Below are positions 2,528 to 50,780 of a stretch of DNA of 64,000 nucleotides, piece by piece. Every line of letters starts with the position of its first letter. The stretch's first letter is position 1. The stretch covers positions 3,871-67,870 of the forward strand of contig CANPWO010000003.1 of the NCBI GenBank assembly GCA_947584535.1, read 5' to 3'. The position numbers and the translations under genes are program-made. This DNA is from an uncultured Clostridia bacterium (GTDB taxonomy: Bacteria; Bacillota; Clostridia; TANB77; CAG-465). The notes below the pieces were generated by a model that worked only from the letters and a program-made list of their open reading frames with translations, searched no databases and was not told where the DNA came from.

Positions 2528-3914
2528 ATGAAATTAAGTTACAACAAGGAAGATATATACAGTAAGTTAGATGAAAAAGAATTAAAAGAAGTAGATGGCT
2601 TTTCAAAAGAGTATATTGAATTTTTAAATAAGGCAAAAACTGAATATGTTTGTGTTGAAGAATTTACAAAAATGCTTGATAAGAATAATTTTGTAGATAT
2701 TAATACAAAAAAAGAACTTAAAAAAGGCGATAGGGTATATTTTATTAATAAAGATAAAGCGATATTTGTTGCTGTGATTGGAAAAGATGATTTAAGTAAA
2801 GGTGTAAATATAATTGGAGCACATATTGATAGCCCAAGACTTGATTTAAAGCCAATGCCTATATATGAAAATAAAGATGTATGTTTGCTAAAAACTCAAT
2901 TTTATGGTGGTATAAAAAAATATCAATGGATGTCTATACCTCTTGCTATGTATGGTGTAATATATAATGAAAAAGGCGAAAAAATTAAAATAGCAATCGG
3001 TGATGATAAAGATGATTTATGCTTTACAATAGCAGATTTACTTCCTCACCTTGCTAAAGAACAAATGAAAGCTAACGCAAATGAGTTTATTGATCCTGAG
3101 AAGATGTCTATATTGTTTGGAAGCATTAAAGATAAAGAGGCAAAGAAAAACAAAGTTAAAGAGAATGTATTAAAAATTCTTAATAAGAAATATGGAATTA
3201 AAGAAATAGATTTTGCAAGAAGTGAAATATCATTTGTTCCTGCTTTTAGAGCTAAATATGTTGGTATTGACTCATCATTTATCGGTGGCTATGGGCAAGA
3301 TGATAGAGTTTGTGCATATACAACAATTAGAGCAATGCTTGATATTTTAAAAGAAGAAAAAGAAATAAAAAGAACAATGGTTGCAATGGTTGTTGATAAA
3401 GAAGAAATAGGAAGTATTGGAAATACATCAATGAGCACTGAAGCATTTGATTTATTTATAAACAAAATAATTGCAAAAAGTGGTAAAAAAGATATTGATA
3501 AATTAGAAGTGTATTATAACTCAAAAATGTTATCAGCAGATGTATCAGCAGGTGTTGATCCAGTATTTGAAGAAGTATCTGATGTACAAAATGGTAATAT
3601 GCTTGGATGCCGGTATTGCTGTTGAAAAATATACAGGTAGTGGCGGAAAATACAATGCATCTGATGCTAATGCTAAATATGTAAGTGAAGTTATGAATAT
3701 ATTTGAAAAAAATAATGTAGCATTCCAACTTGGAACTTTAGGTAAAATCGGAAAAGGAGGAGGCGGAACTATTGCATATATACTTGCTAATAAAGGTGTA
3801 GATGTAATAGATTGCGGTACACCAGTTCTTGCAATGCACTCTCCATTTGAAATAACTTCAAAATTTGATGTATATATGACATATCAAGCATATAAAGCAT
3901 TCTTTAAAAATTAG
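2528..3914 (+). pseudogene. M18-family aminopeptidase interrupted by a +1 frameshift around nt 3605-3612
   Basis: ORFs 2528..3625 and 3540..3914 are in frames +1 apart. Together they encode a roughly 460-aa M18 aminopeptidase (GAHIDSPRLDLKP ... AGIAVEKYTGSGGKYNASDANA ... GGGGTIAYILA). Confidence 0.7.
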
Positions 3915-3923
3915 TAAAAAAAG

Positions 3924-3959
3924 AAACTGTTAGTTTTTATATAAATTAACAGTTTTTTT
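3924..3959 (+). terminator. rho-independent terminator after the aminopeptidase gene
   Basis: AAACTGTTA / TAACAGTTT stem followed by a T7 run. Confidence 0.7.
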
Positions 3960-4030
3960 GTAGCATTTATTTTAAAATATACATAATATATATTAGCGTT
4001 AAAAACGCATATGAAAGGGGAAAAAATAAA

Positions 4031-4216
4031 ATGTGTGGATGTAATAACTCTTGGAATAATTGTTGCTGTCAAAAAAGTAATAATTGTTGTCAACAACAAA
4101 CAACTTGCATTTGTAAATGTTGTAAACAAGTAAGTAATTCTTGTTGTTGCCAAAATAAAATGCAACAACCATCTTGTTGCTGTTCTAATATTGGTACAGG
4201 ATATAACAACTGGTAA
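4031..4216 (+). CDS. cysteine-rich small protein (61 aa, 20 Cys, N/Q-rich)
   Basis: A GAAAGGGGA SD precedes the ATG. Sequence: MCGCNNSWNNCCCQKSNNCCQQQTTCICKCCKQVSNSCCCQNKMQQPSCCCSNIGTGYNNW. The CDS has its own terminator hairpin downstream. Confidence 0.55.
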   Translation: MCGCNNSWNNCCCQKSNNCCQQQTTCICKCCKQVSNSCCCQNKMQQPSCCCSNIGTGYNNW

Positions 4217-4224
4217 AAAAATTA

Positions 4225-4252
4225 TATGAAAAGCTTTTTATAGCTTTTCATA
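4225..4252. terminator. bidirectional hairpin between convergent genes
   Basis: Perfect 11-bp stem TATGAAAAGCT / AGCTTTTCATA. An A7 run sits on the + side, which gives a U-tract for the minus-strand SDR gene. Confidence 0.7.
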
Positions 4253-4262
4253 CATAAAATGA

Positions 4263-5069
4263 TTACATCCCAAAAATTCTGCCAAGTTGTATAAAAAACG
4301 CTTGTGATTTAGGAGCAGTATATCTATGTTTTAATTTGTTACATTCCACAGCTTTTATATATTGATTTATTATAGTATCAAATTTTTTACGTTCGAGGAA
4401 ATTAAATATTTTTTCCTCCTTTTCTTTTATATCTTGCCATTTATACCTAAAATATGATTCTCTTTGCATCCATTCAAATTTTTTATCATTGTTTTCTTTA
4501 TTAAAACCTGTAGCGTATGCACCAGGCTCAATTATACCTACCTGTATATTAGTTCCATCAAGGTCTTTAAGCTCTTTTCTAAGTGATGATGCAAAAGCTT
4601 CAATAGCAAATTTTGAAGCACAGTATGGTGCAAGAAACGGATATGATATTCTACCAAAAAGTGATGAAACAAAAATTACTTTTCCCTTTTTTTCTTCAAT
4701 TAGTTTCTTTAATGCAATTTGTGTTATTTTTATATTAGAAAATACATTAGTCTCAAATACATTTTCAAATCTATCTACTCTTATTTCACTAACTGAACCA
4801 GAGTCACCAATTGCAGCATTATTTACAAGTATATTAAAATCTATATTAAGTAGTTTGTTTCTATCTTCATCAAGTAATATATCAAGTTTAAAACTTCTTA
4901 AATCTATATTTTCATCTTTAGCTTGCTTTTTTAATTCATTAACCTCTGTATCATATCTAGCAGTTGCATAGACTGTATGTCCTCGCCTTGCAAGTGCAAG
5001 AGCTGCTTCTTTTCCAAGTCCACTACCAGCACCTGTAATTAATATTTTTTCTTTATTCATTATTTTCAC
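4263..5069 (-). CDS. short-chain dehydrogenase/reductase (SDR) family oxidoreductase
   Basis: N-terminal TGAGSGLG Rossmann motif and a YxxxK catalytic motif (YCASK). 268 aa. Confidence 0.9.
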   Translation of the reverse strand: MKIMNKEKILITGAGSGLGKEAALALARRGHTVYATARYDTEVNELKKQAKDENIDLRSFKLDILLDEDRNKLLNIDFNILVNNAAIGDSGSVSEIRVDRFENVFETNVFSNIKITQIALKKLIEEKKGKVIFVSSLFGRISYPFLAPYCASKFAIEAFASSLRKELKDLDGTNIQVGIIEPGAYATGFNKENNDKKFEWMQRESYFRYKWQDIKEKEEKIFNFLERKKFDTIINQYIKAVECNKLKHRYTAPKSQAFFIQLGRIFGM

Positions 5070-5210: not shown

Positions 5211-5729
5211 ATGGGATATAATACAGGAACTTTTTTGCTCAGAGAAGAATTACTTGAACAAATTTTAAAAAAAATTCTTAAAGCACACGAAAAATTAAAT
5301 AATTTAAATCATATTGATAATATTTTCTATTTAAAGAATGAATATGATAAATATTTAGAAAAACTATTTTATATGTATGATAAACAATTTATGGAAGATT
5401 TATTTTCTAACTTATTAAAAGAAGAATCTTTTAATCCAGCTGATTTTGATAATGCTTGGCTTATGTTTGCATCAAAATACAAAAATTATGGTGTAGTTAA
5501 AAAGTTGATAGAGGATGAAAGAGTTGACCCGTATGCACGTGAAGATGTAGCATTAGAAAACACTTTTATTAAGAATGACCCAATTATGGCTGAATTAATT
5601 CTTAGTGTATATCATAAGGCCATAGTAAATAAGAAAGAAGATCTTTTTAAACATTTAATAAATTATGCTGTTAATAGAGGTCGTTATAAAATGGCACAGC
5701 TACTTTTAAATAAATTAGTACAGGAGTGA
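5211..5729 (+). CDS. hypothetical cytoplasmic protein (172 aa)
   Basis: AAGGAGGA SD. I recognise no family from the sequence. Confidence 0.55.
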   Translation: MGYNTGTFLLREELLEQILKKILKAHEKLNNLNHIDNIFYLKNEYDKYLEKLFYMYDKQFMEDLFSNLLKEESFNPADFDNAWLMFASKYKNYGVVKKLIEDERVDPYAREDVALENTFIKNDPIMAELILSVYHKAIVNKKEDLFKHLINYAVNRGRYKMAQLLLNKLVQE

Positions 5730-6447: not shown

Positions 6448-6485
6448 GAATGTAAAAAAAATTTTAGAAAATTTATGTCTCTTTA

Positions 6486-6637: not shown

Positions 6638-9600
6638 ATGAAAACAGGTATAAACAAAGTTGCAATGAAAGATAAAAAAGAAGGAATATCATTACTAGTA
6701 TTAATAATAACAATAATAGTAATGATAATACTAGCAGGAGCTGTAATCTTGTCAATAACAAATAATAATCCAGTATCAAAAGCAAATGAAACTAAGGTAA
6801 AAACAGATTTAACAGCATTAAAAGATGAGTATAATAATTTTTACTCAAGTGCCTTGTTTGATAATGTATCAAATACAAAAGGATACTATACAGACAAGAT
6901 GAATATAACAAAAGAAGGAAATATAATATATAAAGGAAAAGTAGTAAACGAGGGTGAAAATAACAGTCTCGCTTCTATCATGCCAAGTATAGTAGGAACA
7001 GAATACGAAGGGAAAGTATTTGTAGCAGATGGGAAGATATATATAGATAACAGAGATAAGTTTTTAAGTGAAGAACAACAAGAATGGGCAAAAGAAGTAG
7101 GAATAAATATATTAAATGAAGGAGAAGTACTGGTATTAAGTACAGAGGAAGTAAGCTTAAAGATAAGTCAAAAAGAAAGAATATATGCAACAGTATTGCC
7201 AGATGCAGATAGCCAAGTAGAATTTGAAATAGATGAGCAAACAAGAGCAAGAATAATAGAAGAAAAAGAAAATACAGTAGATATACAAGGAATAAGTGAT
7301 GGAATAGCAATACTAACAGCAAAAGTAACAGCAAAAGATGGAGTAGAGATAGAAAAGAAAGTAACAGTAAAAGTAAATGTAGGAGACTATATAAAAGTAG
7401 AAAGAATAACAATAGATCCAAGTGAAGTAGTACTTGGATTAGATGACGAACAACAGTTAAGAGCAATAATAACACCAGAGAGTGCAGATAACCAAGATGT
7501 ATCATGGGAAGTAGAAAGTCAAAATCCACAAGGCGCAGTAGAGTTATCACAAATAGGAGTAGTAACAGGAAGAGATGTAGGAGAAGCAAAGATAATAGCA
7601 AAGGGAGAATATGGAAACTTAACATCAGAAGTATGTAGTGTAAGTGTAATAGATAAAACAAAAATAACACTAGATAAGCAAACATTGCAATTAAGAAAAG
7701 GACAAAAAGATACATTAAAAGCAACAGTAGAAAATAAAAATGTAAGAGAAGGAACATTAACGTGGGAAACAAGTGATGATGCAAAAGTAGGAGTAGACCA
7801 GGATGGAAATATAACAGCAAAAGAAGTAGGAAGTGCAACAATAACAGCAAAATATCTAACTAAATCAGTAAGCTGTGTAGTAACAGTAGAAGAACCACTA
7901 AACTTAAAAGCAGAAGTAACAGAGGCAAGAGGAACAATAGTAATATTAAAAATAGATGCAGATACAACATATTCAACAATAGATAAAATACAAGTAAGAT
8001 ACAAAGAAGAAAATGCAACAGAATGGCAAACACAAGAAATAACAGTAAATGCAGAAACATATTCAAAAGATGATTATCAAATAACAGGATTAACAGCAGA
8101 AAAGAAATATGACATAGAAGTAATAGCACACTTAAAAGATGGCGGACAAGATAAAAAAGTAGTATTAACAGCAACACCAAGTAAAATACCAGTAGAAAGT
8201 GTAACAATATCACCAAAGCCATTACAAATATACCATGGAGATAAAACAAAAAAATTAGAAGCAAAAGTATTGCCACAAGATGCAACAAACAAAAAAGTAA
8301 GATGGGAAAGTAGTCAAAAAGATATAGCAACAATAGATGCAAATGGAACAATAACACCAGTAGAAGTAGGAACAACAATAATAACAGCTATATCAGAAGA
8401 TGATGAAACAAAAAGAGATACTTGTGAAGTAGAAATACAAGAACCAATAACATTTAGTGCAAGTGTAGTAAAAGAAAGTATAACATCAAGTATAATACCA
8501 TTAAATATATATGCAAAAACAGAATATGGTAATATAACAGAAATAAAAGTAAGGTATAAAGAAAAAACAGAAACAGAAGAAACAAAGTGGCAAGAAATAA
8601 CAATACCAGAAGCTGTAAATGAAACAGAATATACAAATGAAAAATACCAAATAACAAATTTAAAACCATATACAGAATATGAAATAGAAGTAAGTGTAAC
8701 AATATCAAGTGGAAGAAGTAAAAAAGAAACATTAGAAGTAACACAAACTAAAAAAATAGATGTATCAAGTATAACAATAGAACCAACAACTATACAGATA
8801 CCACTTGGAAATACAAAAGAAATACAAGCAACATTAACACCAAAAGATGCAACATTCCAAGGACTAACTTGGGAAAGTGAAAAAACAAATATAGCAACAA
8901 TAACAGGAGAAGAAACAGCAACAGATGGAGTAGCAAAAGCAACAATAATAGCAAAAGAGATAGGAAATACAACAGTAACAGTAAAATCAAAAGATAACGA
9001 ACAAGCAATAGCTGAGTGCCAAGTACAAGTAACAGAGCCAATATCATTAACAGCAAGTGTAGATACAGGTGGAATAACAGAAACAGTAATACCAGTAAAT
9101 ATACAAACATCAACAGAACATGGAACAATAAGTAAAATAGAAGTAATGTATAAGAAAAAAGATACAGAAGATGAATATACAACACAAAATGTAGAGATAC
9201 AACCAGACCAAACAGAATATAACGGAAAATATGAAATAAAAAACTTAGAGCCAGGAATAGAATATAGCATACAAGTAAAAGTAACAATAACAAGTGAACA
9301 AATAAAAGAACATAGTAAATCAATAAACGATTTAGAAGGAACAACTAAGAAAATAAATGTAGATAGTATAACTTTAGATAAGACAGAAGAAACAATAATA
9401 CTTGGAAGTATGGATTCATTACAACTAACAGCAACAATACAACCACCAGATGCAACAAACAAACTATTAACTTGGACAAGTAATGAACAAACAGTAGCAG
9501 AGGTAGACCAAACAGGAAAAGTAACAATAAAAGGAGTAGGAAGTGCAATAATAACAGTTACATCACAAGATAACGAAAGTGCAAAAGCAGAATGTAAAAT

Positions 9601-12600
9601 AACAGTAATAAATCCAGTAGAAGTAGAAGTAAATAAACCAGAATTATTACCTGGAATGACAGCAATAACGTTTGATGAAAATGGTCAACCACAAGCAACA
9701 GATGAAAATAATCCAGATTGGTATTCCTATGTAGACCAAGGAAATTATGGAACAGATGCAAAGTTAAGTCATTGGGCAAATGCGCAAACAGCAGATGGAA
9801 GCCAGTGGGTATGGATACCAAGGTATGCATACAAGATAGTAAGACAACCAAACGATTATACAACCGAAGGTGGAGAAATAGACATTAAATTTATGAGCGG
9901 AACAAGTAGTACAAAATATATAGACGAAAATGGAGACTTACAAGATTTACCAAAAGATTATATAGTACATCCAGCATTTACAGATGAAAGTAAAAAAGAA
10001 CCAGCGTATGCAAATGGTGGATGGAATGAAGAGTTAACAGGAATATGGGTAGCAAAATACGAAGCAAGTAAAGGAGAAGGAACAGAAAGTCAATCACAAC
10101 AAACATATCCAAAATTTGTACAAGGAGAAAATTCATATGTAGAAATCAATATAGGAGATATGTTTACATTATGCAAAAATTTAGCAACAGATACTAATAA
10201 CCCATACGGATTTTCTTCTTCAAAAGTAGATACACATCAAATGAAGAATAGTGAATGGGGAGCAGTAGCTTACCTAGCACAAAGTAAATATGGAAGAAAT
10301 GGAGTAGAGGTACAGCAAAACAAAGTTTATAATAATAGTAGTGGAGCAAAAACAGGATATGGAGAAAGCACATCATATCCATACAATACACCAGAAGGAC
10401 AGAAAGCATCAACAACAGGTAATCTATACGGTATATATGATATGAGTGGAGGAGCATATGAATATACAGCAGGATATCTAAATAATGGTAATAGATATTT
10501 AAAAAGCTATGGACAATCACTATTAGATGAAACAAATAATAAAGATAACAAAAAAGGAAGTGGAGCATCAACAAAATACGTATCAATATATAACGTAGGA
10601 GAAAGTGATACTCAAGAAAACAATTATAATGAAGAAACAAACAAAGCAAGAAAAGGAGAAGCAATATGGGAGACATCCACTTCTGGAAATAGTAGCAATG
10701 GAAGTTGGTTTGGCGACTATTCATATTTCTCTGACACGTTGAATCCGTTCTTGAGGCGTGGAGGCAGTTACTATAATGGCGGTACTCTCGCGGGTCTATT
10801 CGGCTTCGACTTACATGATGGCATTGTGTACAGTTACAGCGTTTTTCGTGCAGTGTTATGCAAAAAAATACCAGTAACAAGTATTAAGCTAGATAGAACA
10901 GAAGAAACTGTGTTTATAGAAGAAGGAAAAACAATACAACTTACAGCAACAGTATTACCAGAGAATGCATCAAATAAAGAAGTAACATGGACAACAAATA
11001 ATGAGCAAGTAGCAACAGTAGAAGGTAATGGATTAAATGCAACAGTAACAATAAAAGGAGTAGGTCAAACAAAAATAACAGTAACATCAAAAGAAAATAG
11101 TAATGTAAGTGCTTCATGTATAATAACAGTAATAAATCCAGTAGCAAAAATAGGAAGTGAATATTACGATACACTTCAAGAAGCATTTGATGCAAGTTCA
11201 ACAAACTCAAATACATATTCAGATATACAAGTATTAAAAGATATAACAAATAAAACAGCAACACTAAGTAATAACAAATACGCAAAACTAAATTTAGGAG
11301 CACATACAATAACAAATGACCAAGGAGATAAAGCAACAATAACAAATGAAGGATATATGCAAATAGTAGGAGGAGGAAGTTCAACTATATCAAGTACAGT
11401 TGGAAATGCAATAAAAAATATAAATACATTAACAATAAACACAAGCGGAACAATAACATCAAATCAAGATGCAATAGATAATACAAAAACATTAACAGTA
11501 ACAAAAGGAACAATAACATCAACAGGAAGTGATAGTAATAATAGTCATGGAATAAATAATAGTTCAACGCAAGGAAATGTAAATATAACAGGAGGAAAAA
11601 TTGAAGGACGTGACGGAATAAGAAATAGTGGAACATTAACAATTGCAGGAGGAGTTATAAATTCAACTACAGATGATGCAGTAGAGTTTGTAAATGGAAC
11701 AATAGACATAACAGATGGAGAAGTAACAGGAACTAATGGAATATATAATTCAAATGGAGGAACAGCAACAAACAAAGTATTAACAATAGGAAAAGATAAG
11801 GATTCAGTAAATATAACTAACCCAAAAATAACAGTAACAAATATAGCAGTATATAATGGAACTGAAACATTTACATCAAACTTTTATGATGGAGCAGTAA
11901 CAGGAAATGTACAATTTTATAAACAAGATGAAGTAAATATACCAAAAAGATATGAGATAGTAGTAAATGGAAATACCGCAATATTACAAAAACCAGTAGT
12001 ATATGGAACAAATGGAAATCAAGAAGAAGGAACAGGCAAAGTAAATGCACCAGAGATACTTGAAGGAATGAAGGCAATAAAATTTGCTGAAGATGGAAGT
12101 GGAAAGTCAGAAGAAACAACAACAGATGACCCAGCTTGGTATGCGTACAAAGAAAGCAAACAAGAATTTGGAACAGATAATACAACAAGTAGATGGGCAA
12201 ATGCAGAAACAGAAGATGGAAGCCAGTGGGTATGGATACCAAGGTATGCATACAAGATAGTAAAAGAGCCAGAATATACAGGAAGTGGAAGTTCGCAAAA
12301 AACAACCGCAGGTGGAGAGATAGATATAATATTCTTAAAAGGAACAAGTAATAAGTATGAAGACGAAAATGGAGATGAACAAGAAATACCGAAAGATTAT
12401 ATTGTACATCCAGCATTTAGAGATGAAACAGACACACAATTTGCAAATGGTGGATGGGATAGTGAATTAACAGGAATATGGGTATCAAAATACGAAGCAG
12501 GAAAAGGAGGAACTGAAATAGAAAGTACATCAGGAAAAGCATATCCAAAATTTGTACCAGGACGAACTTCTTATGGAAGTTATGGAAGTCTTAAAATAGG

Positions 12601-13303
12601 AGATATATTCACATTATGCAAAAATCTAAACCAAAGTGGTAATCCATACGGATTTTCTTCTTCAACAGTAGACACACATCAAATGAAGAATAGTGAATGG
12701 GGAGCTTGTGTCTATCTTGCACAAAGTAAATATGGAAGAAATGGAGTAGAGGTAACGCAAAACAAAAAAAATGGTAATAATAGTTTACCTCCAGAAACGG
12801 GATATGGAGCAAGCACATCAGCAACATACAATACACAAAGTGGTCAATTAGCATCAACAACAGGAAACATATACGGAATATATGATATGAGTGGAGGAAC
12901 AATGGAATATACAGCAGGATATCTAAAAGGTGGTACTAGTTATAGTAGTTTAACAACATCCGGACAATCACTAGTAGACGAAACAAATAAAGATGGAGAA
13001 AAGAAATCAACGAAATACGTATCTGTATACGAAGGTAGTAGTTCAAGCTATAGTACAAATTATAACAATGCAAAAAACAGTAAAAGAAAAGGAGAAGCAA
13101 TATGGGAGACATCTAAAAGAGGAGATGGCTATACAAGTTGGTTTGGCGACACTTCATATTTTTCTGAACCGACGTATCCATTCTTGTTGCGTGGAGGTTA
13201 TTCCAGCGAGAGTGGTACTAATGCGGGACTATTCTACTTTAACGGCGGCCTTGGCAATGTGGGCAGTTCCTACGGTTTTCGTGCAGTGTCGGTCCCACTT
13301 TAA
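6638..13303 (+). CDS. giant (2221 aa) multidomain cell-surface protein: N-terminal hydrophobic anchor, 7 Big_2 Ig-like domains, 3 FN3-like domains, a parallel beta-helix-like segment and two FGE-sulfatase-like (SUMF1-fold) modules; no LPXTG
   Basis: Single open frame with GGAGG SD. Big_2 repeats (e.g. ITIDPSEVVLGLDDEQQLRAIITPESADNQDVSWE...). FN3-like repeats (EPLNLKAEV...KYDIEVIAHL). FGE motifs WVWIPRYAYKI, NSEWGAVAYLAQSKYGRNG, YGIYDMSGGAYEYTAGY, RGGS...FRAV occur twice. Confidence 0.9.
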   Translation: MKTGINKVAMKDKKEGISLLVLIITIIVMIILAGAVILSITNNNPVSKANETKVKTDLTALKDEYNNFYSSALFDNVSNTKGYYTDKMNITKEGNIIYKGKVVNEGENNSLASIMPSIVGTEYEGKVFVADGKIYIDNRDKFLSEEQQEWAKEVGINILNEGEVLVLSTEEVSLKISQKERIYATVLPDADSQVEFEIDEQTRARIIEEKENTVDIQGISDGIAILTAKVTAKDGVEIEKKVTVKVNVGDYIKVERITIDPSEVVLGLDDEQQLRAIITPESADNQDVSWEVESQNPQGAVELSQIGVVTGRDVGEAKIIAKGEYGNLTSEVCSVSVIDKTKITLDKQTLQLRKGQKDTLKATVENKNVREGTLTWETSDDAKVGVDQDGNITAKEVGSATITAKYLTKSVSCVVTVEEPLNLKAEVTEARGTIVILKIDADTTYSTIDKIQVRYKEENATEWQTQEITVNAETYSKDDYQITGLTAEKKYDIEVIAHLKDGGQDKKVVLTATPSKIPVESVTISPKPLQIYHGDKTKKLEAKVLPQDATNKKVRWESSQKDIATIDANGTITPVEVGTTIITAISEDDETKRDTCEVEIQEPITFSASVVKESITSSIIPLNIYAKTEYGNITEIKVRYKEKTETEETKWQEITIPEAVNETEYTNEKYQITNLKPYTEYEIEVSVTISSGRSKKETLEVTQTKKIDVSSITIEPTTIQIPLGNTKEIQATLTPKDATFQGLTWESEKTNIATITGEETATDGVAKATIIAKEIGNTTVTVKSKDNEQAIAECQVQVTEPISLTASVDTGGITETVIPVNIQTSTEHGTISKIEVMYKKKDTEDEYTTQNVEIQPDQTEYNGKYEIKNLEPGIEYSIQVKVTITSEQIKEHSKSINDLEGTTKKINVDSITLDKTEETIILGSMDSLQLTATIQPPDATNKLLTWTSNEQTVAEVDQTGKVTIKGVGSAIITVTSQDNESAKAECKITVINPVEVEVNKPELLPGMTAITFDENGQPQATDENNPDWYSYVDQGNYGTDAKLSHWANAQTADGSQWVWIPRYAYKIVRQPNDYTTEGGEIDIKFMSGTSSTKYIDENGDLQDLPKDYIVHPAFTDESKKEPAYANGGWNEELTGIWVAKYEASKGEGTESQSQQTYPKFVQGENSYVEINIGDMFTLCKNLATDTNNPYGFSSSKVDTHQMKNSEWGAVAYLAQSKYGRNGVEVQQNKVYNNSSGAKTGYGESTSYPYNTPEGQKASTTGNLYGIYDMSGGAYEYTAGYLNNGNRYLKSYGQSLLDETNNKDNKKGSGASTKYVSIYNVGESDTQENNYNEETNKARKGEAIWETSTSGNSSNGSWFGDYSYFSDTLNPFLRRGGSYYNGGTLAGLFGFDLHDGIVYSYSVFRAVLCKKIPVTSIKLDRTEETVFIEEGKTIQLTATVLPENASNKEVTWTTNNEQVATVEGNGLNATVTIKGVGQTKITVTSKENSNVSASCIITVINPVAKIGSEYYDTLQEAFDASSTNSNTYSDIQVLKDITNKTATLSNNKYAKLNLGAHTITNDQGDKATITNEGYMQIVGGGSSTISSTVGNAIKNINTLTINTSGTITSNQDAIDNTKTLTVTKGTITSTGSDSNNSHGINNSSTQGNVNITGGKIEGRDGIRNSGTLTIAGGVINSTTDDAVEFVNGTIDITDGEVTGTNGIYNSNGGTATNKVLTIGKDKDSVNITNPKITVTNIAVYNGTETFTSNFYDGAVTGNVQFYKQDEVNIPKRYEIVVNGNTAILQKPVVYGTNGNQEEGTGKVNAPEILEGMKAIKFAEDGSGKSEETTTDDPAWYAYKESKQEFGTDNTTSRWANAETEDGSQWVWIPRYAYKIVKEPEYTGSGSSQKTTAGGEIDIIFLKGTSNKYEDENGDEQEIPKDYIVHPAFRDETDTQFANGGWDSELTGIWVSKYEAGKGGTEIESTSGKAYPKFVPGRTSYGSYGSLKIGDIFTLCKNLNQSGNPYGFSSSTVDTHQMKNSEWGACVYLAQSKYGRNGVEVTQNKKNGNNSLPPETGYGASTSATYNTQSGQLASTTGNIYGIYDMSGGTMEYTAGYLKGGTSYSSLTTSGQSLVDETNKDGEKKSTKYVSVYEGSSSSYSTNYNNAKNSKRKGEAIWETSKRGDGYTSWFGDTSYFSEPTYPFLLRGGYSSESGTNAGLFYFNGGLGNVGSSYGFRAVSVPL
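9608..10866 (+). repeat. intragenic repeat unit 1 (FGE-sulfatase-like module, about 420 codons)
   Basis: Its protein is roughly 60-70% identical to unit 2. It contains a 49-bp stretch (9794-9842) identical to 12215-12263, and near-identical stretches at 10203-10260 and 12645-12700. Confidence 0.8.
12037..13300 (+). repeat. intragenic repeat unit 2 (FGE-sulfatase-like module)
   Basis: Paralogous to 9608..10866 and in frame with it; the offset between the 49-bp cores is 2421 bp. Confidence 0.8.
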
Positions 13304-13529: not shown

Positions 13530-13558
13530 TTGACATATAAGCTATTTTAAAGTATAAT
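13530..13558 (+). promoter_or_regulatory. sigma-A promoter TTGACA-17-TATAAT (perfect consensus) for the gat operon
   Basis: -35 at 13530-13535 and -10 at 13553-13558. AAAGGAGGG SD at 13582-13590. Confidence 0.6.
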
Positions 13559-13595
13559 TATTGTTATGATTAAATATTAAAAAGGAGGGTTTTTG

Positions 13596-13883
13596 ATGAG
13601 TGTTTCAAAAGAAGAAGTATTGCATATAGCATCACTTTCTAGACTTAACTTAACAGAGCAAGAACTAGAAAAATATACTAATGACTTATCAAATATTGTA
13701 GATTATGCAAATGAACTTTCAAAAATAGATATAGAAGGTGTTAAACCAACAGCACATATTTTAGATATAAAAAATGTATTTAGAAAAGATAATGTAGAAA
13801 GTTCATATGATAGAGAAAGAATATTACAAAATGCACCAACTAAAGCAGCTGGGTGTATAACTGTACCAAAAGTTGTAGAATAG
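13596..13883 (+). CDS. gatC: Asp/Glu-tRNA(Asn/Gln) amidotransferase subunit C
   Basis: 96-aa ORF with GatC-like LSRLNLTEQELEKYTNDLSNIVDYANELSKIDIEGVKPTAH. ATG at 13596 is preferred over the in-frame TTG at 13593. Confidence 0.9.
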   Translation: MSVSKEEVLHIASLSRLNLTEQELEKYTNDLSNIVDYANELSKIDIEGVKPTAHILDIKNVFRKDNVESSYDRERILQNAPTKAAGCITVPKVVE

Positions 13884-24581: not shown

Positions 24582-25466
24582 ATGCATGATATATGGAATC
24601 CTTGGCATGGTTGTAAAAAAATTAGTGAAGGTTGCAAGAATTGTTATATGTTTTATTTAGATAAAACACGAAGTAATAAATCTGGAGATGTTATATATAA
24701 GACTAAAACTAATTTTAATTATCCACTTCAAAAAGATAGAGCAGGAAATTACAAGATTAAACCTGGTGAACAAATTAGAATATGCATGACTTCAGATTTC
24801 TTTTTAGAAGAAGCAGATAAATGGAGAGATGAAGCATGGAAAATAATTAAGACAAGAAGTGATGTAATATTTTTTATACTAACTAAAAGAGCTGATAGAA
24901 TAGAGGAAAATCTACCGTTTGACTGGGGAGAAGGATACGAAAATGTCATACTAAATGTGACAGCTGAAAATCAAAAAAGAGCAGATCAAAGGATTCCAAT
25001 TTTACTTAATTTAAAAGCTAAACATAGAGGGGTTATGGTAGCGCCATTTATAGATAAGGTAGATATAGATAAATATTTAGCAACTGGAAAAATAGAGCAA
25101 GTAATTTGCGGCGGAGAAAATTATGATGGCTCAAGACCTTGTGATTTTAAATGGGTACAGAAATTAAGTAATGATTGCAAGAAAAATAACACGACTTTTT
25201 GTTTTATTGAAACTGGCACTTTTTTTATTAAAGATAAAAAGATGTATCATATAAAAAGCAAAGATGTTCAAAGTAAAATGGCATATAAAGCAAATGTAAA
25301 TTTTAAAGGACGAGAAATAGAATATAAACTAGTTGATAAATATAACAGTATTATACCAAAAGATAAGTTATATACACCATATTTTAGTGATAAATGTAAT
25401 TTATGTGGTAGCAAAATTATATGTAATGGTTGTGATAAATGTGGCAGATGTGATGAGAACAAATAA
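24582..25466 (+). CDS. DUF5131 (phage Gp37/Gp68-like) protein with a Cys-rich C-terminal tail
   Basis: N-terminus WNPWHGCKKISEGCKNCYM matches the TWNP..GC...S.GC.NCYA signature of the Gp37/Gp68 family. The C-terminus is CNLCGSKIICNGCDKCGRCDENK. Confidence 0.65.
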   Translation: MHDIWNPWHGCKKISEGCKNCYMFYLDKTRSNKSGDVIYKTKTNFNYPLQKDRAGNYKIKPGEQIRICMTSDFFLEEADKWRDEAWKIIKTRSDVIFFILTKRADRIEENLPFDWGEGYENVILNVTAENQKRADQRIPILLNLKAKHRGVMVAPFIDKVDIDKYLATGKIEQVICGGENYDGSRPCDFKWVQKLSNDCKKNNTTFCFIETGTFFIKDKKMYHIKSKDVQSKMAYKANVNFKGREIEYKLVDKYNSIIPKDKLYTPYFSDKCNLCGSKIICNGCDKCGRCDENK

Positions 25467-40662: not shown

Positions 40663-40667
40663 CTGTA

Positions 40668-40694
40668 ACACAACTATTTTTTTATCATAAAATA
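40668..40694 (+). promoter_or_regulatory. possible sigma-K-type sporulation promoter AC-16-CATAAAATA upstream of dpaB
   Basis: AC at 40668-40669 and CATAAAATA at 40686-40694 match the mother-cell SigK consensus AC-N16/17-CATAnnnTA. This is inference only. Confidence 0.35.
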
Positions 40695-40716
40695 TTTCAT
40701 AAGGAGGAATATACTT

Positions 40717-41301
40717 ATGGAGCTAAAAGATAAAAAAATTGGATTTGCAATAACTGGTTCCTTTTGTAATTTTAAAGAAACAAAAGGAGTTTTAGAGGAA
40801 ATAAAAAAAGAAGGGGTAAAAGAGATTATACCTATTGTATCTTATTCAACAAAAGATTTTGACACTAGATTTTATAAAGCAAAAGAATATATAAAAATGG
40901 TGGAGGATACAACTAATAATAAAGTAATAGATACAATTGTAAAAGCTGAGCCTATAGGGCCTAAAAATATGGTGGATTTAATTGTTGTATGTCCTTGTAC
41001 AGGAAATACACTTGCAAAACTTGCAAATGGAGTTACTGATACACCTGTACTTATGGCTATTAAAAGCCATATTAGAAATAATAAACCTGTTGTAATAGGA
41101 GTATCTACTAATGATGGATTAGGAGTAACATTAAAAAATATTGGAATTGTATTAAATACTAAAAATATGTTTTTTGTGCCATTTAGACAAGATGACTGTA
41201 ACTCAAAACCAAAGTCTTTAGTGCTAGATTATAATTACATAATCAATACAATAAAATTAGCATTTCAAGGTAAGCAAATACAACCTATTCTTTCTAAATA
41301 A
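40717..41301 (+). CDS. dpaB: dipicolinate synthase subunit B (SpoVFB-like flavoprotein)
   Basis: 194 aa collinear with B. subtilis SpoVFB: KIGFAITGS, DTIVKAEPIGPK, CTGNTLAKLANGVTDTPVLMA, VSTNDGLG, FFVPFRQDD, QPIL. Confidence 0.85.
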   Translation: MELKDKKIGFAITGSFCNFKETKGVLEEIKKEGVKEIIPIVSYSTKDFDTRFYKAKEYIKMVEDTTNNKVIDTIVKAEPIGPKNMVDLIVVCPCTGNTLAKLANGVTDTPVLMAIKSHIRNNKPVVIGVSTNDGLGVTLKNIGIVLNTKNMFFVPFRQDDCNSKPKSLVLDYNYIINTIKLAFQGKQIQPILSK

Positions 41302-49370: not shown

Positions 49371-50780
49371 GTGATTAAAATAAAAAAAGGATATATATCT
49401 GGTGTAAAAAAAGATAGTATTGCAGAAGAAATAGGAATAAAGAAAGGTGATATACTTCTATCTATTAATGGTGAACCTTTATATGATATTTTAGATTATA
49501 AATTTTATGAAGCTGATAGCTTTATTACACTTGAAATTGAGCATGAAGATGGTAGCTTGGAAATTATAGAAATTGAAAAAGATGAAAGTGAAGAACTAGG
49601 GATTATATTTGAAAATGAATTGATTGATAAACCTCGTAATTGCTATAACAAATGTATATTTTGTTTTATGGAACAATTACCAAAGAATGTTAGAAAAACT
49701 TTGGTGTTTAAAGATGACGATTACAGACTTTCCTTTTTTTCAGGAAATTATATAACACTTACTAATATGAAAGAATTTGATATTGATAGAATTATTAAAT
49801 ATAGAATTTCACCTATAAATATATCTATTCATGCTACTGACGAAAAAGTTAGATGTATGATGTTAAATAATAAAAATGCTGGTAAAGTATTAAATTATTT
49901 AAAAAAACTATATAATGCAAATATTACAATGAATACACAAATAGTTCTTTGTAAAGATATAAATGATAAAGAGATATTAAATAAAACTATTGAAGATTTA
50001 GCTAAATATGCTCCTATTTTAAAAAGTATTTGTATTGTACCTGTTGGACTTACAAGTCAAAGAAAAGGACTATATAAATTAAAATTAAATACAAAACAAG
50101 ACTGTATTAATTTAATTAATCAAGTAAGACCTTACCAAGAAAAGTTTATGAAAAAGTTTAAAACACCTCTTGTATTTTTAGCTGATGAATTTTACTTAAA
50201 AGCAAATAAAGAATTCCCACCATATGAAAGTTATGGTGAATTCGCTCAAATAGAAGATGGTATTGGTATTACGCCTCTTTTTGAACATGATTTTAATAAT
50301 GAGTTAAGAAAATATAGTTTTAATGAAAATATAAAAAAAGATGTTACTATTATTACTGGAAAGATAACAAAAAAATATATGCTAGAAAAAGCTAAACAAA
50401 TAAATAAATTATTTCCAAATATAAATATTAATATAGTTGCTCCAGAGAATAATTATTTTGGAAAAAATATAACAGTTACAGGCCTTATTACTGGAATAGA
50501 TATACTAGATACAATAACTAAATTAAAAGAAAAAAATGTAGATTTAGGAAAATATATAGTTATATCAGATGTAATGCTTAAAGATGATGAAGATATATTC
50601 TTAGATGATATGAGTCTTAAAACACTACAAGAAAAAATAGATATGCCTATTGTTGTTACAGATGGAAGTGCAAAAGTTTTCATTGATTCTATAATAAATT
50701 ACAACAAGAAAAGTAAGATATATAAATATAACTTAGACAGACAAAGAAATAGTTATGAAAATTGTATGAAAAATATATAA
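49371..50780 (+). CDS. PDZ-domain radical SAM protein with C-terminal DUF512
   Basis: N-terminal PDZ-like segment (GIKKGDILLSINGEPL), CYNKCIFC (CxxxCxxC) cluster motif and a long C-terminal domain. The start codon is uncertain: GTG 49371 abuts the SD. Confidence 0.7.
   Translation: MIKIKKGYISGVKKDSIAEEIGIKKGDILLSINGEPLYDILDYKFYEADSFITLEIEHEDGSLEIIEIEKDESEELGIIFENELIDKPRNCYNKCIFCFMEQLPKNVRKTLVFKDDDYRLSFFSGNYITLTNMKEFDIDRIIKYRISPINISIHATDEKVRCMMLNNKNAGKVLNYLKKLYNANITMNTQIVLCKDINDKEILNKTIEDLAKYAPILKSICIVPVGLTSQRKGLYKLKLNTKQDCINLINQVRPYQEKFMKKFKTPLVFLADEFYLKANKEFPPYESYGEFAQIEDGIGITPLFEHDFNNELRKYSFNENIKKDVTIITGKITKKYMLEKAKQINKLFPNININIVAPENNYFGKNITVTGLITGIDILDTITKLKEKNVDLGKYIVISDVMLKDDEDIFLDDMSLKTLQEKIDMPIVVTDGSAKVFIDSIINYNKKSKIYKYNLDRQRNSYENCMKNI

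Follow-up and report, generated by a model that had tools for sequence, protein, structure and literature searches.

The DNA analyzed in this study (hereafter the window, the whole stretch of 64,000 nucleotides, with a GC content of 26.7%) is chromosomal DNA from a low-GC member of Clostridia, and the nearest match to it is a MAG from rabbit gut that bears the label 'uncultured Clostridia bacterium'. Between an M18 aminopeptidase gene and a convergent SDR gene, the window carries a short ORF encoding a cysteine-rich peptide, at exactly the position reported in a sequence-only reading of the same DNA. The features around this ORF, together with two other genes or promoters of the window that serve for comparison, are as follows.

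3924..3959, plus strand: terminator-like hairpin and T-run of the M18 aminopeptidase gene (AAACTGTTA...TAACAGTTTTTTT), read from the sequence.
3960-3965, plus strand: –35 element GTAGCA, 16 nt upstream of the –10 element and resembling the mapped sigma-K –35 of C. difficile.
3982-3990, plus strand: –10 element CATAATATA (CATAnnnTA), the last base of which is 40 nt before the ATG.
3995..4008, plus strand: predicted transcription start A3995 and 5΄-terminal stem-loop GCGTT AAA AACGC (stem-loop at 3996-4008).
4013-4020, plus strand: Shine-Dalgarno (SD) sequence GAAAGGGG, ending 10 nt before the ATG.
4031..4216, plus strand: coding sequence of the peptide (61 aa, 17 Cys, 19 Asn plus Gln, net charge +4), with the stop codon TAA at 4214-4216.
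4223-4254, minus strand: 13-bp terminator hairpin, with its T-run at 4213-4222 on the minus strand.
4263-5069, minus strand: SDR gene, convergent with the peptide gene.
About 13531-13559: sigma-A promoter of gatCAB-proS, TTGACA-N17-TATAAT (12/12 match).
40665-41301: dpaB (dipicolinate synthase subunit B), with the promoter GTAACA-N15-CATAAAATA at 40665-40694, directly upstream.

The translation of the ORF is MCGCNNSWNNCCCQKSNNCCQQQTTCICKCCKQVSNSCCCQNKMQQPSCCCSNIGTGYNNW. Cysteine accounts for 17 of its 61 residues (28%), rather than for 20 (one third) as counted in the sequence-only reading, and the peptide further contains 11 Asn and 8 Gln. Its densest 40-residue stretch holds 14 Cys, compared with a maximum of 8 in 100 second-order Markov randomizations of the window, and the long ORFs of the window contain on average 1.4% Cys. 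Because the randomized sequences reach only 8 and the long ORFs average only 1.4%, we concluded that the Cys enrichment does not result from the GC content of 26.7%, at which the cheap filler codons are those for Asn, Gln and Lys. None of the eight members of the peptide family described below contains a hydrophobic run of more than three residues; the family is therefore considered to have no signal peptide or transmembrane segment, and the absence of a signal peptide noted in the sequence-only reading holds for every member. Aromatic residues number three in the window peptide (W, W and Y) and between one and seven in its relatives. The AlphaFold model of the peptide was of low confidence (pLDDT 48) and too poor for a fold search.

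Related loci were retrieved from species-representative genomes and metagenomes by way of the adjoining convergent SDR gene, and one further locus (L012) was added through P0001, the relative found in an exhaustive phmmer search. This yielded eight loci, namely the window, L001, L002, L003, L004, L005, L012 and L015, the last of which was added by an SDR-based metagenome scan; the SDR identity of the peptide-bearing loci ranges from 61 to 97% (L012 unscored). At all eight loci, an ORF of 58-70 aa with 9-17 Cys (16-28%) lies at the same syntenic place, convergent with the SDR gene, and it is absent from L016, a locus whose SDR is only 56% identical. Every member of the family derives from an uncultured organism. 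Of the six frames, only that of the peptide is free of stops across all eight loci, and the length changes among these divergent loci are whole codons. The ATG and the SD sequence are likewise conserved in 8/8 loci, with GGAGG or GGGGG located 7-10 nt before the ATG; the SD sequence noted in the sequence-only reading is thus present in the window and kept in all relatives. Conservation of the ORF in relatives had been set beforehand as a check on the gene, and the ORF was found intact and without frameshifts at every locus. Two kinds of competing ORFs were considered and rejected: a hydrophobic 40-aa ORF that overlaps in another frame (4011-4133), whose ATG is missing in L001 and which contains stops in relatives, and antisense ORFs across the peptide gene, which are interrupted in orthologues.

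The closest relative, L001, shares 85% nucleotide identity with the window over 6.4 kb. The two peptides are 72-77% identical with dN/dS values of 0.27-0.35, as compared with 0.04-0.15 for the neighboring enzymes, and the constraint on the peptide is purifying, although relaxed. The sequence is stable within one species, since the L004-type protein is identical on 78 contigs. Only three to four Cys columns are invariant across the eight members, and what is conserved across the family is length, polarity, the lack of hydrophobic runs and the presence of CC/CCC clusters. Such poor conservation of Cys positions fits a compositional role, and it fits a metal-thiolate or thiol-buffer role equally well. 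Judging from these orthologues, the ORF at 4031-4216 is almost certainly a real gene. We also observed that the three closest members (the window, at 4184-4213, L001 and L012) have the C-terminal motif SNIG(T/F)G(Y/C)NNW in common and that the last residue is W, Y or H in seven of the eight members and R in the L004 type; this shared C-terminus could be a docking motif.

The gene upstream of the peptide gene varies among loci (M18 aminopeptidase, histidine kinase, DivIC or DUF1877), and the promoter block is retained throughout. The downstream neighbors are the SDR gene and gatCAB, and the peptide-SDR pair lies in a conserved block beside gatCAB-proS. No maturase, protease, exporter, metal-sensing regulator or efflux gene is adjacent to the peptide gene at any locus. 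A functional link between the peptide and the adjacent SDR was judged unproven, given that the pair lies in a conserved block and that the SDR gene is served by a separate promoter of a type other than sigma-K. The SDR gene itself (4263-5069, compared with 6001-6804 of L001) shows a dN of 0.011 and a dS of 0.26, as against dS values of 0.5-1.0 for its neighbors, which hints at either recent exchange or strong codon-level constraint.

Several other genes of the window deserve mention. A frameshift divides the M18 aminopeptidase gene (2528-3914) into two ORFs, 2528-3625 (Pfam positions 1-336) and 3540-3914 (Pfam positions 334-432), and the gene is intact in L001 and L012 (461 aa); the split copy is either a pseudogene or a sequencing error. 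Located between the SDR and DUF212 genes, a 172-aa ORF (5211-5729) matches ankyrin repeats weakly; it evolves fast, with a dN/dS of 0.57 relative to L001, and is absent at that place in L012. Between the DUF212 gene and gatC, positions 6638-13303 encode a surface protein of 2221 aa that contains six Big_2 and fn3-like domains and two copies of a segment with WANAxTxDGSQWVWIPRYAYKIV. Because gatC is found directly at that place in L012 and L023-L026, and because the homology between the window and L001 stops at 6455, the gene for this protein looks like a lineage-specific insertion. The spore-related genes of the window are dpaB, which has no dpaA beside it and is flanked by LexA upstream and RimO downstream, and a gene for a polysaccharide deacetylase related to PdaA/PdaB; because the window has these two genes, its host is likely to be spore-forming.

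We searched for relatives of the peptide in a range of sequence collections. Searches of Pfam and NCBIfam with permissive thresholds gave no match for any of the eight members, and the family had no match among PDB sequences. A homology search, which the sequence-only reading had suggested, was performed with phmmer against 1.84 billion representative proteins and returned a single relative (P0001). Word-index searches yielded nothing with the single peptide sequence and only the family's own members with a profile of seven members, and a scan of JGI metagenomes with a three-member peptide alignment yielded nothing. The assembly index has no record of the exact window protein. In Rfam, there was no family for either the leader or the ORF, and the weak sub-threshold sRNA matches that were obtained did not come near the gathering score. 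In a collection of 15 billion proteins, five of the eight members are absent, and two of the three members present have wrongly extended N-termini: P0002 (L004 type) and P0003 (L005 type) were called from upstream starts, as proteins of 77 and 98 aa, respectively, that run through the promoter and the leader. The family is thus systematically missed or mis-annotated by gene callers. As far as can be judged from these searches, the peptide appears to represent a lineage-restricted family.

The promoter of the peptide gene in the window reads GTAGCA-N16-CATAATATA. The sequence-only reading had noted, at the right position, a loose likeness to a mother-cell sporulation –10 element and had reported that no –35 was found; GTAGCA at 3960-3965, 16 nt upstream, resembles a sigma-K –35, and the –10 element now appears to be part of a complete sigma-K-type promoter conserved in 8/8 loci. 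Nowhere in the intergenic region is conservation higher than in the block CATA(nnn)TATATTAG, despite the differing upstream genes; CATA and TA are invariant in all eight orthologues, with variation limited to the nnn positions, and the spacing between the –35 and –10 elements is 15-16 nt at every locus. The –35 hexamers of the orthologues are GTAGCA, GGAACA, GTGTCA, TTAACA, GTGGCA or GTATCA, in which CA is invariant; the canonical AC is found in only two of the eight, and the rest read GCA or TCA. Among the TSS-mapped promoters of C. difficile reported by Saujet et al. in 2013 (PMC3789822 Table S7), those assigned to sigma-K have the form GTAACA or TTAGCA, N15-17 and CATAnnnTA. The promoter of cdeC in that list, GTAACA-N16-CATAGTAT, closely resembles that of the peptide gene, and a TTAGCA –35 is found in CD0896 (TTAGCA-N17-CATAGTATA) and in CD1063.2 (PMC3789822 Table S7).

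CATAnnnTA alone is not enriched in the AT-rich window (101 observed versus 110 expected occurrences), nor is the extended motif CATAnnnTATATTAG when one mismatch is allowed, and the argument from a single motif was dropped. The case for sigma-K therefore rests on conservation and on the score of a two-block weight matrix, which we trained on 25 sigma-K promoters mapped in C. difficile (PMC3789822 Table S7). With this matrix, the window promoter scored 14.7 bits and seven of the eight orthologues scored 11.4-17.8 bits, compared with 7.5-18.8 bits for the training set. On both strands of the 64-kb window (128 kb), only four sites scored at least 14.7 bits, of which two are intragenic, one precedes the peptide gene and one precedes dpaB, a spore-specific and classically sigma-K-dependent gene. 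The matrix match at 13650-13680 lies inside gatC and was discarded as a false positive.

Other sigma factors were also compared. A matrix trained on sigma-E promoters gave lower scores than the sigma-K matrix at seven of the eight loci, and the sigma-F/G promoter lists differ, having another –10 element and a G(T/A)ATA –35. The sigma-A consensus was matched at 7-8 of 12 positions at seven loci and at 10 of 12 in L004, whose promoter also reads as a fair sigma-A promoter; the perfect sigma-A promoter of gatC provides an internal contrast to the peptide promoter within the same window. These results suggest that the peptide gene is probably controlled by a mother-cell sigma factor.

The start at A3995 was predicted from the –10-to-TSS distance of C. 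difficile sigma-K promoters, and the stem-loop GCGUU-AAA-AACGC begins one base into the predicted transcript. A leader hairpin is predicted at the same place in 8/8 loci, with folding energies of –4.5 to –9.0 kcal/mol and z values of –2.2 to –5.1 for the seven that were folded (that of L015 was read from the sequence) and with loop lengths of 3 to 6 or 7. Because the MAFFT alignment of the leaders was structurally inconsistent, covariation was read from the individual folds, with no formal count. Opposite the fifth base of TTAG(C/T)G, the other arm always carries a pairing G or A; this pair is C-G in the window, L005 and L012 and T-A in L001, L004 and L015, and the closest pair of loci, the window and L001, shows a compensatory double change in the leader stem. 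The variable spacing and the covariation favor an RNA structure over a protein operator. Stem-loops that act as stabilizers at the 5΄ terminus are present in Bacillus mRNAs, and by analogy, the leader hairpin probably prolongs the life of the mRNA.

Downstream of the ORF, the hairpin at 4223-4254 has its T-run on the minus strand, and the terminator scan therefore assigned it to that strand alone, as a terminator of the SDR gene that converges on the peptide gene. The sequence-only reading had credited the ORF with a hairpin of its own; the hairpin is real, but it is primarily the terminator of the neighboring SDR gene and may act in both directions. Its core, GAAAAGC...GCTTTTC, is kept in seven of the eight loci, and L002 has a different hairpin at the same place. 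On the upstream side, the hairpin at 3924..3959, which is missing from the list produced by the terminator scan, bounds the peptide gene's own promoter, and the gene is therefore regarded as a separate transcription unit.

We compared the peptide with known cysteine-rich proteins. In C. difficile, cdeC (CD1067) and cdeM (CD1581) are Cys-rich exosporium genes under sigma-K control, and exosporium assembly requires CdeM, a lineage-specific protein devoid of conserved domains (PMC6101409). CdeM contains the repeats NGNNGGNNNNC and CNCCNCCRK, CdeC contains the motifs CCRQGKGK and CNECC, and disulfide cross-linking of the outer spore layer has been proposed for both (PMC6101409). By analogy, the closest counterpart of the peptide appears to be CdeM, although the two are non-homologous. 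Like CdeM and CdeC, the peptide has its Cys in an Asn/Lys/Gln-rich background, with CC motifs, and its gene is probably under sigma-K control. However, there is no detectable sequence homology to either protein, the peptide is far smaller (61 aa versus 161 aa for CdeM and 405 aa for CdeC) and richer in Cys (28% versus 8.7% and 9%, respectively), and it has no repeat architecture beyond its CC/CCC runs.

CsxA/CsxC of Clostridium sporogenes and C. botulinum and CotY/CotZ/ExsY of Bacillus are proteins of Cys-rich, disulfide-stabilized, self-assembling outermost layers, with sequences that are unrelated between lineages; the predicted folds are SPOCS/DUF3794 for CsxA/CsxC/CdeC and an alpha/beta fold for CotY/ExsY. 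The same functional class is proposed for the peptide. These proteins form 2-D crystals and are predicted to have domain folds, whereas the shortness and low complexity of the peptide preclude a fold of this kind. Recent work describes Cys-rich, disulfide-stabilized assembly as a convergent principle of spore envelopes, in that case for larger proteins whose domain folds are predicted. Outside the bacteria, keratin-associated proteins (high- and ultra-high-sulfur KAPs) are low-complexity proteins with 20-35% Cys in CC runs, and they form a disulfide cross-linking matrix between structural proteins. KAPs are eukaryotic and unrelated to the peptide in sequence, and the likeness is one of mechanism, not of ancestry.

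Taken together, the peptide family shows features of the class of mother-cell Cys-rich spore proteins, namely 16-28% Cys, no hydrophobic segment and a mother-cell-type promoter. No homology to the known Cys-rich spore families (DUF3794/SPOCS, CotZ/CotY) was detected by Pfam, NCBIfam or PDB searches, and no confident fold was obtained. In C. difficile, 21 of 57 sigma-K genes code for constituents of the spore proteome, including CdeC and CdeM; however, non-structural proteins are also among sigma-K gene products, and the known Cys-rich spore envelope proteins are larger, none being this small or this Cys-dense. With these points on both sides, we consider it about an even prospect that the peptide is a late mother-cell, low-complexity, hyper-cysteine protein of the spore coat or exosporium. 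A coat or cross-linker role had been one of the options in the sequence-only reading, and it is strengthened by the finding of an apparently full sigma-K-type promoter that is present in 8/8 orthologues, the whole window containing no more than four sites of such a score, its own included.

In such a role, the peptide gene would be transcribed during sporulation by RNA polymerase carrying a late mother-cell sigma factor of the sigma-K type, and the 5΄-terminal stem-loop would shield the mRNA from 5΄-end-dependent decay, such that much protein could be made from a short message. Lacking an export signal, the peptide would be synthesized in the cytoplasm of the mother cell and added to the forming spore alongside the coat or exosporium proteins. 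Once mother-cell lysis and exposure to oxygen had ended the reducing conditions, the CC/CCC clusters would form many inter-molecular disulfides, and the peptide would serve as a filler or 'glue' that cross-links, a part comparable to that of keratin-associated proteins in hair and to that proposed for the Cys/Asn-rich repeats of CdeM and CdeC in the exosporium. The assignment to a sigma factor and the timing, localization and disulfide chemistry of the peptide are all steps that we infer.

The main rival to this reading is a metallothionein-like metal-thiolate protein. In the reducing cytoplasm, its CC/CxC clusters would take up Zn, Cu or Cd, and the protein might buffer metals in general or form a store of metal that is loaded into or onto the spore; in either form, we consider it unlikely. 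The resemblance lies in size and composition, as metallothioneins (bacterial SmtA/BmtA and MymT; eukaryotic MT2A and Cup1) have about 60 aa, about 30% Cys and both CC and CxC motifs, and the peptides are likewise small, with 16-28% Cys and many such motifs, to which the L004-type variant adds four His. Apo-metallothioneins are usually unfolded without ligands, and AlphaFold finds no fold for the peptide without ligands; moreover, the sigma-K timing would be compatible with a metallothionein if the metal load went to the spore. However, the family matches no metallothionein family in Pfam or NCBIfam and no PDB chain, and the peptide shows no similarity to human MT2A or yeast Cup1. Its members contain one to seven aromatic residues, unlike classical metallothioneins, and their Cys positions are unconserved apart from the three to four invariant columns. 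In addition, no metal-sensing regulator or efflux gene is adjacent at any locus, and the promoter is of a sporulation type rather than the sigma-A, operator-controlled type. The missing family match, the aromatic residues and the lack of an adjacent metal regulator lend no support to the metal sink proposed in the sequence-only reading, and we keep it as a rival. That conservation is compositional rather than positional would also suit a sacrificial thiol or sulfur reserve, belonging to the spore or the sporulating cell and acting not as a cross-linker but as a redox buffer against oxygen and oxidants or as a Cys store for outgrowth. SASPs, the spore amino-acid reserve proteins, are made in the forespore from sigma-G promoters, and promoters of that kind do not fit the peptide gene. 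The sporulation-type promoter itself agrees with a reserve, as does the fact that oxygen-detoxification proteins belong to clostridial sporulation regulons (PMC3789822), and on balance, we regard this role as improbable.

Two further explanations seem hardly credible. A small Cys-rich ORF could encode a RiPP precursor of the thioether or sactipeptide type (SCIFF-like), and radical SAM genes do occur elsewhere in the window (24582-25466 and 49371-50780). These genes are, however, more than 20 kb away; the neighbors of the peptide gene include no maturase, protease or exporter at any locus; no NCBIfam precursor family was matched at E ≤ 10; and Cys occurs from residue 2 onward, which leaves no division into leader and core. 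The statement in the sequence-only reading that the peptide is not a known RiPP core is borne out by the NCBIfam result and by the lack of a nearby maturase. Equally doubtful is a non-coding origin, in which the ORF would have arisen by chance in TGT/CAA-rich, low-complexity intergenic DNA or would be part of a small RNA. The low complexity of the DNA, the five members missing from the 15-billion-protein collection and the weak sub-threshold sRNA matches would agree with this explanation. Against it stand the retention of the ORF at eight divergent loci with whole-codon length changes, stops in every other frame in at least one locus, the conserved SD sequence and ATG, a dN/dS below 1, a Cys density far beyond that of randomized sequences and the lack of any Rfam match near the gathering score.

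Returning to the spore coat or exosporium reading, we tentatively raise the possibility, which we regard as somewhat doubtful, that spore-forming gut anaerobes have a new class of 'spore KAP-like' proteins, ultra-small (about 60 aa), intrinsically disordered and hyper-cysteine, to which the peptide belongs. Proteins of this kind would be synthesized late in the mother cell from an mRNA with a stabilized leader, and selection would act on their Cys density and not on their sequence. Not until the spore left the anoxic gut would their disulfides form en masse and harden its surface, thus providing an oxygen-triggered armour.

It is becoming apparent that spores are generally built with Cys-rich, disulfide-stabilized outer layers, and all the characterized Cys-rich spore proteins have 150-400 residues and about 9% Cys, and for several of these a domain fold is predicted. 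If the proposed role is true, a 60-residue, fold-less protein with 28% Cys would represent a different building block, a cross-linking filler as opposed to a lattice former. The hosts of the peptide are uncultured gut Clostridia, whose spores mediate host-to-host transmission. Because genes of this kind evolve fast and escape annotation, a search that combines promoter and composition could uncover many more of them.
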